The notes beneath the pieces were generated by a model that was not told the origin of the DNA, searched no databases, and saw only the letters and a program-made list of their open reading frames with translations. This document shows, piece by piece, positions 18,022 to 59,695 of a DNA stretch of 64,000 bases; position 1 is the stretch's first letter; each line of letters begins with the position of its first letter. This DNA is from Candidatus Micrarchaeota archaeon (GTDB taxonomy: Archaea; Micrarchaeota; Micrarchaeia; Anstonellales; Bilamarchaeaceae). Both the position numbers and the translations under genes were made by a program. Location of the stretch: positions 12,222 to 76,221 of the forward strand of contig JBFLYM010000001.1 of NCBI GenBank assembly GCA_040757035.1. The letters are read 5' to 3'.

Positions 18022-18454
18022 GAGTATAGCATTGAATATTGGTGATTTTATAAAAAAATATGAAGATTTGCTTGATGCTGCGTATAAAAGTATTCCTAAA
18101 GAGCTTTATAGCGGCTCACGATTTGAAATTATGAAATTGGAATCATTTACCGAAGGTACAAAAACTATAGTCAAGAATTTTGGTCAAGCAATGGATACGA
18201 TAAGGCGCGATCGCAAAGATGTGATGAAATTCCTTTCCAAAGAACTTGCTGTTCCAATTAATAGCGACGGTGATAGACTTATCTTACAAAGAAAATTCTT
18301 TGGCGACCTAATAAACAAAAAATTTGAAGATTATGTCAATCTTTACGTATTATGTAAGCAATGTAAAAAACCAGATACTCATATAGAAGAGATAGGACAC
18401 GGTGTTAAAAACATAATTTGCGAAGCGTGTGGTGCAAGACATTCGATTAAGTGA
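18020..18454 (+). CDS. eif2b: Translation initiation factor 2 beta subunit (aIF2beta). Non-ATG (TTG) start.
   Basis: …YEDLLDAAY…ELAVP…LILQRKF… and the C-terminal zinc ribbon CKQCKKPDT…CEACGA. Confidence 0.8.
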   Translation: MSIALNIGDFIKKYEDLLDAAYKSIPKELYSGSRFEIMKLESFTEGTKTIVKNFGQAMDTIRRDRKDVMKFLSKELAVPINSDGDRLILQRKFFGDLINKKFEDYVNLYVLCKQCKKPDTHIEEIGHGVKNIICEACGARHSIK

Positions 18455-18458
18455 TATT

Positions 18459-18773
18459 ATGCGGAATAATAAGTCATCATCGCCATCAGGGGATGTGCCA
18501 CAATTTAGGATAAGATTACCAAAAGGAAATGAAGTCTTTGGAGTAGTAATTGGATTAGTAGGTGGCAGCAGAACAATTGTTGCATGTAAAGATGGGAAAG
18601 AACGCAATTGCCGCATTCCAGGTAGATTGAAAAATGATATTTGGGTTAGAGATGGAGATATAGTAATTGTGCAACCTTGGGATATAGAAAGTGATAAAAA
18701 AGGCGATATTATTTGGAGGTATACTCCCCTCCAAGCAAAAATGCTTACCGAAAAAGGATTGATAAGAAATTAA
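18459..18773 (+). CDS. eif1a: Translation initiation factor 1A (aIF1A).
   Basis: …VFGVVIGLVGGSRTIVACKDGKERNCRIPGRLKNDIWVRDGDIVIVQPW… has the eIF1A OB-fold signature. Start taken at the ATG (MRNNK). Confidence 0.8.
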   Translation: MRNNKSSSPSGDVPQFRIRLPKGNEVFGVVIGLVGGSRTIVACKDGKERNCRIPGRLKNDIWVRDGDIVIVQPWDIESDKKGDIIWRYTPLQAKMLTEKGLIRN

Positions 18774-18784
18774 AAAATCTAAAA

Positions 18785-18901
18785 ATGCGATTGCCGGGAC
18801 TCCCCACGTATTCTTTTCTTCTTTTAAAAAGGAAAAGGGGTCTGGTTCGGACCCGGGTCCCAAGCTTGGAAGGCTTGCATCCTACCACTAGACTACAATC
18901 G
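18785..18901 (-). tRNA. tRNA-Gly(UCC) with a ~44-nt non-canonical intron placed inside the T-loop.
   Basis: Minus-strand read: acceptor GCGATTG/CAATCGC, D-arm with GG, anticodon arm CAAGC-CTTCCAA-GCTTG. Removing CCAGACCCC…GGGGAG restores T-arm CCGGG-TCCGAAT-CCCGG. Discriminator A; CCA not encoded. Confidence 0.55.
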
Positions 18902-18963
18902 CATAAAAATTTTATATATCTAATATTATGTTTAGTATATATCCACTTTTGTGTATGATTTAT

Positions 18964-26006: not shown

Positions 26007-26122
26007 GCCACGGTAGCTCAGCTGGGAGAGCATTCGGCTGAAGAATTCGATTTCAAAACAAGAAACCTGAAACTGAAAATTCAGTTACCGAAGGGTCGTT
26101 GGTTCAAGTCCGACCCGTGGCA
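26007..26122 (+). tRNA. tRNA-Phe(GAA) with a ~43-nt canonical intron (37/38 position).
   Basis: Acceptor GCCACGG/CCGTGGC, D-arm GCTCAGCTGGGAGAGC, anticodon stem TTCGG/CCGAA with loop CTGAAGA. Intron about 26044-26086. T-arm GTTGG-TTCAAGT-CCGAC. Discriminator A. Confidence 0.8.
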
Positions 26123-26248
26123 ATAAGCGTTTTTAGTTTCCTGCTTTTCTGCTTTTAGTTTTCAATATCTTCAAAATCTAACGAGTGTAACGAGTGTAAT
26201 TGGAGGGGGAGTCGGGAGGAACACAAGAACCTGAGGGGGAACGCCAAC

Positions 26249-26884
26249 TTAATACATAATAAGTTCCCCCTTGGGTTTGTGAAGGTTCAAGTCCGACCCG
26301 TGGCAATAATCCTTGGGCTGACATTTATATTCCGCAATTACGTGGTGTTTAGCTCCTGAAGGACTAAGTTCGCTCGCCATAAGATAAAAATTTTCAACTT
26401 TAAAATCGCCAAATTTCCATTTCTGATATTTTTCAAAAAACTGCTTCATGTCCATTTTTTTAATTCGCGCGAGCGTGATATGTCCAACGAACTGTTCTGA
26501 AGGAAATTCTGGCAATGCTTTGTTTATTTCATTCGCAAATTCAACGAGTTCTTGCGTTTTGCATCTCGCCCATATTACACGTGCATGCTGCTTGTTTGGA
26601 AACGCGCCTATGCCTTCTATAGCAACATTAAATGCAGGATACTCAACCGTGCGCAATTGCTGCTCTATTTTCTGAATTTTTTTGGAGTCGACTTCGCCTA
26701 AAAATTTTATTGTGATGTGGATATTTTCATTATTAACTACGGTTACCTTAGCTCCTCCACTTGTCGCTTTAGCTACTCCATTTATTGTTTTATCTCCTAA
26801 AGGTTTTCCTAAAAGTTCGCATTGCACACTATAGATCGCACGCTTTATCCATACCGGAACGCCAACAGAAACGAAAAATCGCAT
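26249..26884 (-). CDS. thpR: RNA 2',3'-cyclic phosphodiesterase / 2'-5' RNA ligase (LigT/ThpR, 2H family). The annotated C-terminal ~30 codons read through the tRNA 3' fragment.
   Basis: Two H-x-T-x motifs, HITIKFLG and HITLARI, at the expected spacing. Confidence 0.75.
   Translation of the reverse strand: MRFFVSVGVPVWIKRAIYSVQCELLGKPLGDKTINGVAKATSGGAKVTVVNNENIHITIKFLGEVDSKKIQKIEQQLRTVEYPAFNVAIEGIGAFPNKQHARVIWARCKTQELVEFANEINKALPEFPSEQFVGHITLARIKKMDMKQFFEKYQKWKFGDFKVENFYLMASELSPSGAKHHVIAEYKCQPKDYCHGSDLNLHKPKGELIMY
26283..26310 (+). repeat. Duplicated 3' fragment of tRNA-Phe (T-arm plus acceptor 3' strand). Possible att-site-like remnant.
   Basis: gaaggttcaagtccgacccgtggcaataa repeats 26094-26125 exactly. 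No matching 5' acceptor strand lies upstream. A perfect 9-bp hairpin agggggaac…gttccccct precedes it. Confidence 0.5.
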
Positions 26885-53399: not shown

Positions 53400-54227
53400 T
53401 TGATTTCGTTGGAAAACATAAAAGAAGAGATGAACGTAAACGAACTGAGCGTAAACGAACAAATCGAACAAATTAACGATGCGTGGAAAGACATATGTAA
53501 GGTATTGTTCGGCGAAGAAATAGGACCATTAAAAGAATATGCAGATTACCTCGTTAAATATGTAGATATTTCCCTAAACAGAAAGAAATCCGCGTTGTCT
53601 GGAAAGTCAGTTATAACTGCGTCAAAGAATGTACATCAGAATGCGAAATTCATACGCAACGATGAAATCTCGATTTTTGAAAAAAGAATTGGAAACAAAC
53701 CTTTAGATATAAACAAAATAAAGGATTTTGACTCGCTAATCGAATGCGTGCAAGAAAAAGTATTTTACGCAGGTGATATTGTTCTCGGAAATTCAAAAAA
53801 CGTAGAAAAATCAGATAGATGTGTGAATGCATGTTATGTTTATTGGTCTCAAGATGTTTACGCTAGCAAATATATTGTGTATTCGGATTCAATAAAAGTA
53901 TGCGAGTATCTATTTGGATGTAGTGCAGCGGGAGAAACAAAATACGGAATCAAGAATTTCGAAGCACACAAAACTATAAGGTGTTTGGAAGTTTATCGCA
54001 CATACACTTCGTCTGATTGCTATTTTACCGGTAATCTAGAATGTTGCAACAATTGTATGTTTTCCTTTAACTTACGAAACAAAAACCGCATGATCGGTAA
54101 TGTTCAATTTTCCAAGGAAGAATACTCTTCGCTGAAACAAAAACTAATTGAAGATATTCGAGATAGTTTACAAGCAAAAAAGTTTATTCTTAGTATAATA
54201 GATATAATTCGTGAGGGTCATGAATGA
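53400..54227 (+). CDS. Cys-rich protein of unknown function, paralog 1. Degenerate 12-residue Cys repeats in the C-terminal half.
   Basis: …CYFTGNLECCNNCMFSFNLRNKNRMIGN… No signal peptide. Homologous to the next ORF (shared VEKSD…MF.FN…K.R.IGN…EY). Confidence 0.45.
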   Translation: MISLENIKEEMNVNELSVNEQIEQINDAWKDICKVLFGEEIGPLKEYADYLVKYVDISLNRKKSALSGKSVITASKNVHQNAKFIRNDEISIFEKRIGNKPLDINKIKDFDSLIECVQEKVFYAGDIVLGNSKNVEKSDRCVNACYVYWSQDVYASKYIVYSDSIKVCEYLFGCSAAGETKYGIKNFEAHKTIRCLEVYRTYTSSDCYFTGNLECCNNCMFSFNLRNKNRMIGNVQFSKEEYSSLKQKLIEDIRDSLQAKKFILSIIDIIREGHE

Positions 54228-54990
54228 GGAAATGAAAAAAAGAATGGAAAACGCGTTTGAATCCACATCGCAAATCATATTCAGAAAAAGACTTTGCGGA
54301 CTCGATAATTATTCGGATTGGCTTAGTTTACATGTAAGCAAACCATTAGAACGAAGTTCGGCTATAAGCAAACAAACAGTATACTGTCCAAATATTTTAT
54401 TTTTCAAATTTTTAGGAAATGGTATTGTAACACTTGCCGAGTCAATCGAATTAGGAAAAAAAAGCATTTTGAAAGAGGATGCAGAAAATCTAACATTGTC
54501 AAATGCAACTCTCCTACTGAAAGAAATAAGCTATACAACAACAGAAGCAGTTGTTGGGACTAATCTCGATGTTGAAAAATCCGATATATACGGATATTCT
54601 TATCATTGTTATAACGGTACTTATTTTGTTTACAGTAAATATTGCGCATATTGTTTTTGGCCAAGGGAATCTGAATATTGTTTTGGTTCGGTATATACAT
54701 TCAATTCGAAATTTTGCATAAAATGTTATTATTCGACTAATCTTACGCGATGTTTTGAAATGCTCAATTGTTATAATTGTAGCGATTGTTATTTCTGCTA
54801 CAATTCGGAAAATTTAATGGAATGTATGTTTTGCTTCAACACGAAAAGCAAGAGATATGCCATAGGGAATATTAAAGTAGGAAAAGAAAACTATGTTAAA
54901 ATAAAGAAAATTATGATGGATGAAATAGTGAAAAGGCTGGAAAAAGACAAAAAAATAGATATTAACATCTATAACATTGAAAAATATTGA
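54211..54990 (+). CDS. Cys-rich protein of unknown function, paralog 2. Six or more tandem 12-residue units, each ending in Cys.
   Basis: YHCYNGTYFVYSKYC|AYCFWPRESEYC|FGSVYTFNSKFC|IKCYYSTNLTRC|FEMLNCYNCSDC|YFCYNSENLMEC|MFCFNTK. 17-nt overlap with paralog 1. Confidence 0.45.
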   Translation: MRVMNEEMKKRMENAFESTSQIIFRKRLCGLDNYSDWLSLHVSKPLERSSAISKQTVYCPNILFFKFLGNGIVTLAESIELGKKSILKEDAENLTLSNATLLLKEISYTTTEAVVGTNLDVEKSDIYGYSYHCYNGTYFVYSKYCAYCFWPRESEYCFGSVYTFNSKFCIKCYYSTNLTRCFEMLNCYNCSDCYFCYNSENLMECMFCFNTKSKRYAIGNIKVGKENYVKIKKIMMDEIVKRLEKDKKIDINIYNIEKY

Positions 54991-55113: not shown

Positions 55114-55226
55114 TGGGCTCGCGCGGAATCGGACCGCGAATCTTTACCGTGTCAGGGTAATGTCTTTTACAGCTACTTAAATTAAACAAGATTTAAGTTA
55201 AGTAGTAACCATTCGACTACGAGCCC
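55114..55226 (-). tRNA. tRNA-Val(GAC) with a ~40-nt non-canonical intron between the D-arm and the anticodon stem.
   Basis: Minus-strand read: acceptor GGGCTCG/CGAGCCC plus discriminator A. D-arm GTCG-AATGGTTA-CTAC (one mismatch). Anticodon arm TTACC-CTGACAC-GGTAA. Variable loop AGATT. T-arm CGCGG-TCCGATT-CCGCG. The intron contains the hairpin cttaaat…atttaag. Confidence 0.55.
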
Positions 55227-55668: not shown

Positions 55669-55752
55669 TTTTTATTTTGTTTTCGTTTCATCTTATCAGT
55701 ATTTATTAATATTAGTAAATAACTTTATTAATACAAAATTCATAATATTTTT

Positions 55753-56055
55753 GGGCTAGGGCGGGGTTAGGGGTCCCGGGAAGTTTTGGCTTCCACAACC
55801 GCAATCCTCCTTTAAGCGGACCGAAAACCCGTGGCGTTAATGATGTTTGAGATTCTTCTCAAATATTGACGCAATGTTTTTTTAGAATGAACTTGGGCTT
55901 AAGCGCTGAAGTTTTGCCCTATATTGCGTTGTGTTACGTGAATCTGGCCAGGCCGGAAGGAGCAACCATAAGCGTAATATGGTGTGTTTATAGAATCCAA
56001 AACTGAGCAGATGTCTAAGGCAACATTCCAAAAAAATTTAGCAAAACGGGATGCC
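55753..56055 (+). ncRNA. ffs: Candidate signal recognition particle RNA (7S/SRP RNA). The 3' boundary is uncertain.
   Basis: GC-rich island in an AT-rich spacer. Contains ctGGCCAGGCCGGAAGGAGCAACc (55944-55967), which matches the universally conserved SRP RNA helix-8 motif. A 5' GGG-rich start lies about 190 nt upstream, as in archaeal SRP RNAs. Confidence 0.5.
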
Positions 56056-56070
56056 CATTTATTTTTATTT

Positions 56071-58373: not shown

Positions 58374-59135
58374 TTATCTTGTTTTAATCCACTCAAGAAT
58401 TGCGTTTTCAGCTGTATCAAAATCAACAAGTTTCCCAAATACTATTTGTTTAAGCTCTTTATTCCAATCATCTCTTTTCTTTTTTAAGCTATCAACAAAT
58501 TCCTGTTCTGAAAAAATTTCATCGTAATATTTAAGTTTTTTATTTATCAATTCAATGTTAAATTTTATCCCTTTATTCTTAATAAGAAAGAACAGATCAT
58601 AAACATCTCTTGGCTTTTTTCTTTTCATAATTGCTCTTATTTTTTCAGCTGCCACTTCATTAATACTCATTCCATTAATTATCTTAGTTGGTGCTTCATA
58701 TGCATCGAAATTTAGCTTTACTGAAAGACTATCTGCTACAAGATTCTCCCTTTTGCTTATTTCTACGTAGATATGGCACAAATCTATATCAGATGTGTTA
58801 AGTGGACCCTTAGCGCTCACGCGAAATGAAAAATTACAATCGCTGTTATTAATTCTTTTTAGTATATTTTCTACTCCAAACAATCTAAGTCCTTCTGAAA
58901 CTTTTGTATCTAGATCGTTTGGTAAATCTCCAATTGCCATTAAATCCACATCTTCGGAGAATCTATCAAGACCGTGAAAAAACCAGAGATATGTTCCACC
59001 TTTAAATACAAGTGGGTACTCTGAAAGTGTTACAAAAATAAAGAACTGTATGTAATGCTTCTCTTGCTGCCATGTTTTTCTATCATACAATTTTGCAATA
59101 GAGATTAATTTTTCCTTGCTTATCATTTCAACCAC
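58374..59135 (-). CDS. AbiEii/DUF1814 nucleotidyltransferase toxin (type IV toxin-antitoxin).
   Basis: …FKGGTYLWFFHGLDRFSEDVDLMA… is the nucleotidyltransferase signature of AbiEii. Overlaps the upstream antitoxin by 13 nt. Confidence 0.7.
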   Translation of the reverse strand: MVEMISKEKLISIAKLYDRKTWQQEKHYIQFFIFVTLSEYPLVFKGGTYLWFFHGLDRFSEDVDLMAIGDLPNDLDTKVSEGLRLFGVENILKRINNSDCNFSFRVSAKGPLNTSDIDLCHIYVEISKRENLVADSLSVKLNFDAYEAPTKIINGMSINEVAAEKIRAIMKRKKPRDVYDLFFLIKNKGIKFNIELINKKLKYYDEIFSEQEFVDSLKKKRDDWNKELKQIVFGKLVDFDTAENAILEWIKTR

Positions 59136-59695
59136 TCAGATATTTTCTTCTTTCCCCAACCATAAAATCGTTCTAAGTACTCATTTAGTTTCTTTTTGTC
59201 TAAATCATTATATATCTCTTTCACAACGTCTTTAGATGTAGTATCAAGATAAATTGCATCGATAATTGCTTTTTCAGGATCTGCTACAATAATATAACTA
59301 AAATCCTTTTTGTATTTTTTGTAGCCATAAAAAAGTCGTGACGGTATTTTGTAATATTTTATACCAAGCGAATTATACTCTCTGCTATTCGTTGTAGTAA
59401 CGCATTGAACATTTTTAGGTACCTGCTTGATGAGTTGATGAAACAACAATGCTGAAAATAATGATATATACGATGGTTCGATAAGCTGACTTGCGATAAC
59501 GAAATTATCACTGGTAAATGAAATTTTTCCCCGCAATACTTTTTCTGCAAGGCCCTTTTTTGTCAATCTTGTTGAGTATACTTTTGCAATTGTTTTTGGT
59601 TTATTTATAAGGTTTGCGAGTTGCTGTATTGAATAAAGTGCTCTGCCCGCTCGCTTGGCCATCTCTTTTATTTCATATAGATTCGTCTTTTTCAT
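59123..59695 (-). CDS. AbiEi-family antitoxin/transcriptional regulator (COG5340-like).
   Basis: N-terminal wHTH (…RALYSIQQLANLINKPKTIAKVYSTRLTKKGLAEKV…) and a C-terminal AbiEi_4-like domain. Immediately upstream of AbiEii. Confidence 0.65.
   Translation of the reverse strand: MKKTNLYEIKEMAKRAGRALYSIQQLANLINKPKTIAKVYSTRLTKKGLAEKVLRGKISFTSDNFVIASQLIEPSYISLFSALLFHQLIKQVPKNVQCVTTTNSREYNSLGIKYYKIPSRLFYGYKKYKKDFSYIIVADPEKAIIDAIYLDTTSKDVVKEIYNDLDKKKLNEYLERFYGWGKKKISEWLK

Follow-up and report, generated by a model that had tools for sequence, protein, structure and literature searches.

The 64,000-nt (64-kb) stretch of DNA analysed here (the window) contains, between the genes for aIF1A and ribosomal protein L15, a sequence that reads as an ordinary tRNA-Gly(UCC) as far as the T-loop and resumes only 46 nt later. 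Is this a working tRNA gene with an intron inside the T-loop, and is the C that it carries at position 55, where U is expected, a genuine feature of the tRNA? A sequence-only reading of the same DNA had proposed both a T-loop intron and an unusual T54-C55 T-loop. On the evidence set out below, we conclude that the locus is most probably a functional tRNA-Gly(UCC) gene of Candidatus Micrarchaeota (DPANN) with a 46-nt archaeal-type intron between positions 59 and 60.

A tRNA-Gly(UCC) gene with a 46-nt insert in the T-loop

We built a covariance model (R1) from an alignment (A2) of 21 diverse intronless tRNA-Gly(UCC) homologues. Stems in this alignment contain 97.5% standard pairs, compared to 33–44% in slid controls, and compensatory changes are seen in 10 pairs. 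In the window, R1 aligned with the whole of 18902–18786 (72.6 bits, E about 1e-17), and the alignment opens one 47-nt insertion, placed at model position 60. This insertion ends in U, and U60 is invariant in the homologues among the matches listed from a scan of public metagenomes (see below); it follows that a 46-nt insert lies between positions 59 and 60. The sequence-only reading had put the insert at about 44 nt, and its coordinates for the gene, although they identified the right locus, were one base off (18785–18901 instead of 18786–18902) and came without the strand (minus). After in silico removal of 18800–18845, ARAGORN called a 71-nt tRNA-Gly(tcc) with a standard cloverleaf. This result and the full-length R1 match bear out the proposal of a tRNA-Gly(UCC) with a T-loop intron. 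No other tRNA-Gly-like match was found within the 64-kb window using Rfam or R1; a second, intact tRNA-Gly(UCC), which the sequence-only reading had named as evidence that would speak against it, is absent from this region.

With default settings, ARAGORN called no tRNA in the whole 64-kb window, although three tRNA genes are present. With canonical introns allowed, it found tRNA-Phe and tRNA-Val, mis-typing the latter as anticodon aac, and missed tRNA-Gly. This agrees with the earlier remark that introns of this kind are often missed by tRNA finders, and it means that tallies of tRNA complement and genome completeness in DPANN archaea will be too low without searches that allow non-canonical introns. 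The Rfam tRNA model (RF00005) gave a partial match to the unspliced DNA (27.3 bits, 18840–18896, model positions 7–64), below the gathering score of 29 bits. We attribute this shortfall to the intron and not to the exons, because the spliced sequence is not what was scored. The "T-arm" in the Rfam alignment is false: exonic GGGUC is paired there with intronic GACCC. The resulting T-arm-like hairpin (minus strand, 18840–18856, loop CGAACCA) dominates the unconstrained minimum free energy fold of the unspliced RNA, in which no cloverleaf appears, and could mislead automatic annotation.

The 5′ exon contains the 5′ strand of the acceptor stem, the D-arm, the anticodon arm, the variable loop, the 5′ strand of the T-stem and T-loop nucleotides 54–59 (UCCGAA), while the 3′ exon contributes U60, the T-stem strand CCCGG, the acceptor strand CAAUCGC and discriminator A73. 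Joined, these give a 7-bp acceptor stem (GCGAUUG/CAAUCGC), UA, a D-arm (GUCU-AGUGGUA-GGAU), G, an anticodon arm (CAAGC-CUUCCAA-GCUUG), a 4-nt variable loop (GGAC) and a T-stem (CCGGG/CCCGG) that closes the loop U54-C55-C56-G57-A58-A59-U60. With the 46 nt removed, the anticodon and T stems are 5 bp long and enclose 7-nt loops, all four stems are intact, and 21 of 21 stem pairs are standard. The sequence-only reading had arrived at the same spliced arm, CCGGG-TCCGAAT-CCCGG, and this is the product that fits the homologues best. Watson–Crick pairing of the 3′ exon with the 5′ exon is complete in both the T-stem strand (5/5) and the acceptor strand (7/7), an outcome with a chance probability of ∼6e-6 (∼100 candidate positions downstream × 4^-12). 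The GC content of the spliced tRNA is 57.7%, versus ∼34% for the AT-rich genome.

The identity elements of archaeal tRNA-Gly are the anticodon NCC, discriminator A73 and the pairs C2-G71 and G3-C70. We read each of these in the gene (the anticodon being UCC), along with G1-C72. In the 21 aligned homologues, G1-C72, C2-G71 and A73 are invariant, and the 3-70 pair is G-C in 16 and otherwise covaries. Nucleotides of the tRNA elbow are as conserved at G18, G19, U54, C56 and A58, with C in place of U at position 55. In archaeal transcription, oligo-T runs act as terminators, and the TTTTT directly after the discriminator is likely to be one.

The gene is 117 nt long, does not encode CCA and stands at the end of a ribosomal protein operon (Table 1). 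Its neighbour L15 is 80% identical to the L15 of a Candidatus Micrarchaeota MAG, and aIF1A is 100% identical to a Candidatus Micrarchaeota archaeon protein. ORFs overlap the tRNA on both strands; these are mechanical and have no support. Elsewhere in the window, an AbiEii-type nucleotidyltransferase toxin and an overlapping upstream ORF likely constitute a type IV toxin–antitoxin pair, and two cysteine-rich ORFs (275 and 259 aa) lie adjacent to and overlap each other.

Table 1. Features of the window and the evidence for each
Feature	Coordinates	Strand	Evidence
tRNA-Gly(UCC) precursor gene, whole	18786..18902	-	Covariance model R1, end to end
5′ exon, 57 nt	18846..18902	-	Partial Rfam tRNA match and R1 alignment
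Anticodon UCC (glycine), loop CUUCCAA	18868..18870	-	ARAGORN on spliced sequence, tRNA-Gly(tcc)
C55	18850..18850	-	Direct sequence reading
Intron, 46 nt, between positions 59 and 60	18800..18845	-	R1 insertion site, homologue U60
3′ exon, 14 nt	18786..18799	-	12/12 Watson–Crick pairs with 5′ exon
TTTTT run directly after discriminator	18781..18785	-	Sequence reading
aIF1A	18429..18773	+	
Ribosomal protein L15	18964..19404	-	
tRNA-Phe(GAA)	26007..26122	+	Rfam tRNA 53.4 bits, BHB scan
tRNA-Phe intron, 43 nt, canonical 37/38	26044..26086	+	
GGTTCAAGTCCGACCCGTGGCAATAA, two exact copies	26101..26126 and 26284..26309	+	
LigT-like 2H phosphoesterase / 2′-5′ RNA ligase	26249..26884	-	Pfam PF02834, E 2.5e-22
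Two overlapping cysteine-rich ORFs	53400..54227 and 54211..54990	+	No Pfam match
tRNA-Val(GAC)	55114..55226	-	BHB scan, ARAGORN after splicing, R1 match 40.4 bits
tRNA-Val intron, 40 nt, D-loop	55167..55206	-	
tRNA-Val C55	55132	-	
SRP RNA, divergent archaeal	55749..56060	+	Rfam RF01857, 49.2 bits (gathering score 96.5)
AbiEii-type toxin and overlapping upstream ORF	58374..59135 and 59123..59695	-	Pfam PF08843, E 3.9e-25 (toxin); no Pfam match (upstream ORF)

Predicted splice junctions and competing explanations

All three tRNA genes of the window (Gly, Phe and Val) carry introns. tRNA-Phe, which has a normal T-loop (UUCAAGU), served as the geometry control: an exhaustive register scan recovered its perfect motif, a strict hBHBh′ with a 4/4 central helix H (CUGA/UCAG), h of 5, h′ of 3, the cut 37/80 and two 3-nt bulges, each cut after the second nucleotide. 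The intron of tRNA-Val is non-canonical and located in the D-loop, where R1 places a 41-nt insert; its junction is of the HBh′ type, with a central helix AUGG/CUGU, two 3-nt bulges and an 8-bp outer helix h′. Because tRNA-Val has this non-canonical intron, a broad-specificity splicing endonuclease is indirectly implied in the host.

Other features were noted around these two genes. The last 22 nt of tRNA-Phe and 4 flanking nucleotides recur as an exact copy 183 bp downstream, where zero matches are expected by chance; the second copy falls inside the C-terminal tail of a neighbouring ORF, and the repeat has the appearance of an att-type duplication, such as integration of an element into the 3′ end of the tRNA would leave behind. 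The gene for a LigT-like protein adjoins tRNA-Phe; the 2′,3′-cyclic phosphate ends left by tRNA splicing are substrates for members of this family. The SRP RNA match lies ∼520 bp from tRNA-Val.

The intron of tRNA-Gly, CCAGACCCCUUUUCCUUUUUAAAAGAAGAAAAGAAUACGUGGGGAG, contains an internal hairpin, CUUUUC.UUUU/AAAAGAAAAG. In the strict hBHBh′ scan of this gene, no 4/4 central helix leaves a 7-nt T-loop, and the sole 4/4 helix that is found results in an 8-nt loop. The best fold with the cloverleaf enforced (−32.3 kcal/mol) consists of the T-stem, a 2-nt bulge (G, U60), 3 bp (UCC:GGA), a 3-nt bulge (G57-A58-A59) and 3 bp (CCA:UGG). In the canonical cutting register, an hBH fold is predicted (−27.7 kcal/mol) in which the T-stem is followed by a 3-nt bulge (A-G-U60, cut before U60), by U54·G, C55-G and C56-G pairs and by a G/G mismatch, with A58-A59 and the adjoining intronic C looped on either side of the 5′ cut; its energy is 4.6 kcal/mol above that of the best constrained fold. 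The sequence-only reading had the ends of the insert pairing as a BHB-like CCCC/GGGG helix, and had asked whether the junctions fold as a BHB motif. We reject that helix (−27.9 kcal/mol with the cloverleaf enforced), as it is not the best fold and a canonical 5′ cut would fall 11 nt into the intron; the fold check itself gave a relaxed structure instead of a strict hBHBh′ that leaves a 7-nt T-loop. As modelled, then, the junction is of the relaxed hBH or BHL type and not a strict 3-4-3 bulge-helix-bulge. Broad-specificity enzymes tolerate bulges of 1–4 nt or the loss of one bulge (PMC3239211), and the folds at −32.3 and −27.7 kcal/mol are both within this bulge range.

We infer the following pathway from the sequence. 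Transcription would proceed from an AT-rich promoter and end at the TTTTT run. In the precursor, CCGGG and CCCGG would form the T-stem, and U54-C55-C56 would pair with the G-run in which the intron ends. This would place the 3′ splice site (between A-G and U60) in a small bulge beside the T-stem and the 5′ splice site (between A58-A59 and C) in a bulge or loop, an arrangement of the relaxed hBH (bulge-helix-loop) kind. Both sites would be cut by a broad-specificity splicing endonuclease, likely of the epsilon2 type as in the relative ARMAN-2, and an RNA ligase would join the exons. The product would be a 71-nt tRNA with the T-arm CCGGG-UCCGAAU-CCCGG, to which the CCA tail would be added afterwards. 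With an intron in the T-loop, the tRNA elbow and T-loop modifications could form only after splicing. No splicing endonuclease or EndA domain was found in the 20 window ORFs scanned against Pfam.

Reading of the intron sequence revealed no C/D-box guide RNA, and the intron is not repeated elsewhere in the 64-kb window. An intron-bearing homologue was seen at 0 of 120 metagenome loci among the matches listed, and at none in viral contigs. Relatives identified through L15 (L001–L003) and aIF1A (L124, L126, L127) have no tRNA at the syntenic spots, and Rfam detects one tRNA only on the loci of these relatives. Neither homologues nor relatives thus lend comparative support to the intron itself.

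How else might the locus be explained? It could be a disrupted pseudogene, that is, an intact tRNA-Gly(UCC) that took a 46-nt T-loop insertion which is never spliced, with GGA and GGG decoded by a gene elsewhere. Such a history would fit the lack of a strict BHB motif, of a homologue with the same intron and of conserved synteny, as well as the score of the unspliced sequence below the Rfam gathering value. Yet the exons are undamaged, with all 21 stem pairs standard and 72.6 bits against functional homologues, and the insert, which has no second copy in the window, lies precisely at 59/60, where introns are known in the phylum. The T-run terminator is also intact, and introns in all three tRNAs of the window are what is expected for the lineage. 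We regard the pseudogene explanation as unlikely.

Alternatively, the intron could be real and both cuts could fall 1–3 nt upstream (58/59-type). The sequence at the boundary permits a shift of this size, which would give a mature T-loop of UCCGAGU, and in the most stable constrained fold a cut after the second nucleotide of the 5′ bulge G57-A58-A59 would come after A58. The homologues argue otherwise: among the 120 matches listed, UCCGAGU is found in 2, compared to 102 with UCCGAAU (UCCGAUU accounts for 8 and UCCGACU for 7). Moreover, only the 59/60 register cuts the 3′ side after the second nucleotide of a 3-nt bulge beside the T-stem, and 59/60 is a documented position in ARMAN-2, so we consider shifted cuts quite unlikely. 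An assembly or sequencing artefact, in which a chimeric join or mis-assembly made the insert and/or C55, might be suspected from the source, a metagenome-assembled genome, and from the conflict between C55 and the textbook invariant U55. This is effectively refuted. Across aIF1A, the tRNA and L15, an independent Logan assembly (SRR32167786) shows 100% identity, which argues against an assembly artefact, though the run may be the MAG's own source. C55 is also found again in many samples (at least 120 contigs), in genes whose stems show compensatory covariation. The reading that we prefer remains a functional gene with its intron between positions 59 and 60.

C55 in glycine tRNAs

In reviews, U55 or pseudouridine 55 is described as universal or conserved, with no mention of a C55 variant (PMC7912444, PMC13520502). 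Pseudouridine 55, for which U55 is the precursor, is the most universally conserved tRNA modification according to such reviews. No description of a natural C55 was found in the literature that we searched, the coverage of which is incomplete, and we make no claim of novelty. The unusual T54-C55 T-loop noted by the sequence-only reading is confirmed by direct reading (Table 1) and by the presence of C55 in homologues with stem covariation. U55 cannot be restored by moving the splice sites, as there is no TTC on either side.

Public metagenomes were scanned for an anticodon-loop-to-T-loop pattern requiring TCCGA, which identified tRNA-Gly(UCC) with the arm CCGGG-UCCGANU-CCCGG on at least 120 contigs (L004–L123), representing at least 22 sequence types and spanning 20–62% GC. 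All of these intronless homologues (at least 120) have C55, as the scan required TCCGA. tRNA-Gly(GCC) genes in the same loci were not selected by the pattern, and 4 of 5 have C55; on one contig (L024), Gly(GCC) with U55 is found beside Gly(UCC) with C55. Among the other tRNAs in the fetched loci, U55 is the rule; the two exceptions with C55 are a Phe (L015) and a Leu (L120). A Bathyarchaeia group accounts for 24 loci among the matches listed, and contig L085 encodes a GMP synthase that shares 78% identity with a named Bathyarchaeia protein.

The tRNA-Val of the host has the same TCCGA T-loop, as noted earlier (T-arm CGCGG-UCCGAUU-CCGCG), and for this reason C55 had been taken for a lineage feature. 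That interpretation does not survive the comparison, as C55 in tRNA-Gly is widespread across unrelated archaea, e.g. Bathyarchaeia. Judging from the genes compared, C55 is linked mainly to glycine tRNAs across phyla; its occurrence in the tRNA-Val of the host is a rarer event and looks unusual. Since the same deviation is seen in at least 120 homologues with stem covariation, we take C55 to be a natural variant and not a defect, and these comparisons indicate that many archaeal tRNA-Gly genes have it as a genuine feature, maintained by selection, and not as an error.

A broader reading, which we put forward tentatively and consider possible but doubtful, is that the glycine tRNAs of unrelated, mostly uncultured archaea (Bathyarchaeia, Micrarchaeota and other low-GC DPANN-like contigs) systematically have C55. 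Their elbow would then either lack pseudouridine 55, with perhaps a G18-C55 Watson–Crick pair, or contain a C55 that is modified or edited. C55 may matter more than the intron. A base described as "invariant" in textbooks would, in abundant uncultured archaea, be replaced throughout the tRNAs of one amino acid.

Several observations were made on the metagenome contigs. An insert of ∼17 nt is present in 69 C55 tRNA-Gly(UCC) loci among the matches listed (e.g. L005, L008, L010, L096), between the D-arm and the anticodon stem, around positions 26–30, and ARAGORN mis-types these genes as Leu, Ala or undetermined. In acceptor stem and T-arm, these genes are similar to the Bathyarchaeia group, and the inserts are probably non-canonical introns of another archaeal lineage. 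Near-identical C55 tRNA-Gly genes are carried by L027 and L114; on L027, inspection by eye also revealed an ORF like a protein kinase and a protein like ribonucleotide reductase, so this contig may be viral. The low-GC contig L015 (27–29% GC) has an array of 15 tRNA genes, among which are unusual T-loops (UUUGAUU, UUAAAGU and a Phe with UCCGAUU), and five of the same tRNAs are found on L100.

Comparison with known tRNA introns

Non-canonical intron positions are typical of some archaeal lineages, as the sequence-only reading had pointed out, and for Micrarchaeota introns at 59/60 have been documented and cleaved experimentally (PMC3239211). In ARMAN-2 (Candidatus Micrarchaeum acidiphilum), 56% of tRNA genes are disrupted (Fujishima et al. 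2011, PMC3239211). In this organism, the 13-nt intron of pre-tRNA-Cys(GCA) lies at 59/60 and adopts a relaxed hBH (BHL) motif, and pre-tRNA-Pro(GGG) is interrupted twice, at 53/54 and 59/60 (PMC3239211). Strict as well as relaxed substrates are cleaved in vitro by the three-unit epsilon2 endonuclease (PMC3239211). Cleavage of the BHL-type tRNA-Cys was confirmed by a 2025 structural study (PMC12397907). The position of the tRNA-Gly intron is hence one already documented for the lineage, in tRNA-Cys and tRNA-Pro of ARMAN-2 (PMC3239211). With T-loop introns already known in Micrarchaeota, the find is a routine one: it is a new case of a class already described from this phylum, differing in its longer intron, and extends the 59/60 class in Micrarchaeota to tRNA-Gly.

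The tRNA-Gly gene shares with ARMAN-2 tRNA-Cys the phylum and the 59/60 position, its junction as modelled would be of the same relaxed hBH/BHL class, and both are missed by standard tRNA finders. They differ in the amino acid (Gly, not Cys) and in the intron, which is 46 nt here versus 13 nt and has its own internal hairpin; in addition, ARMAN-2 tRNA-Cys has been cleaved in vitro, whereas splicing of tRNA-Gly is predicted from its sequence. ARMAN-2 tRNA-Pro(GGG) likewise has a T-loop intron at 59/60 in a Micrarchaeota tRNA, but it forms a strict hBHBh′ by using two introns, while tRNA-Gly has a single insert and a motif modelled as relaxed. The tRNA-Gly intron is also like introns at many non-canonical positions, which have relaxed HBh′/hBH motifs with bulges of 1–4 nt and are handled by broad-specificity endonucleases (PMC3239211), although the host here belongs to the DPANN archaea, not the crenarchaea, and its genome is AT-rich (34% GC). 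Within the window, the canonical 37/38 intron of tRNA-Phe would rely on the same presumed enzyme and ligation chemistry and is of similar length (43 versus 46 nt). It interrupts the anticodon loop, and its central helix of 4 bp is perfect, with a 3-nt bulge on each side, whereas the intron of tRNA-Gly interrupts the T-loop and is without these elements.
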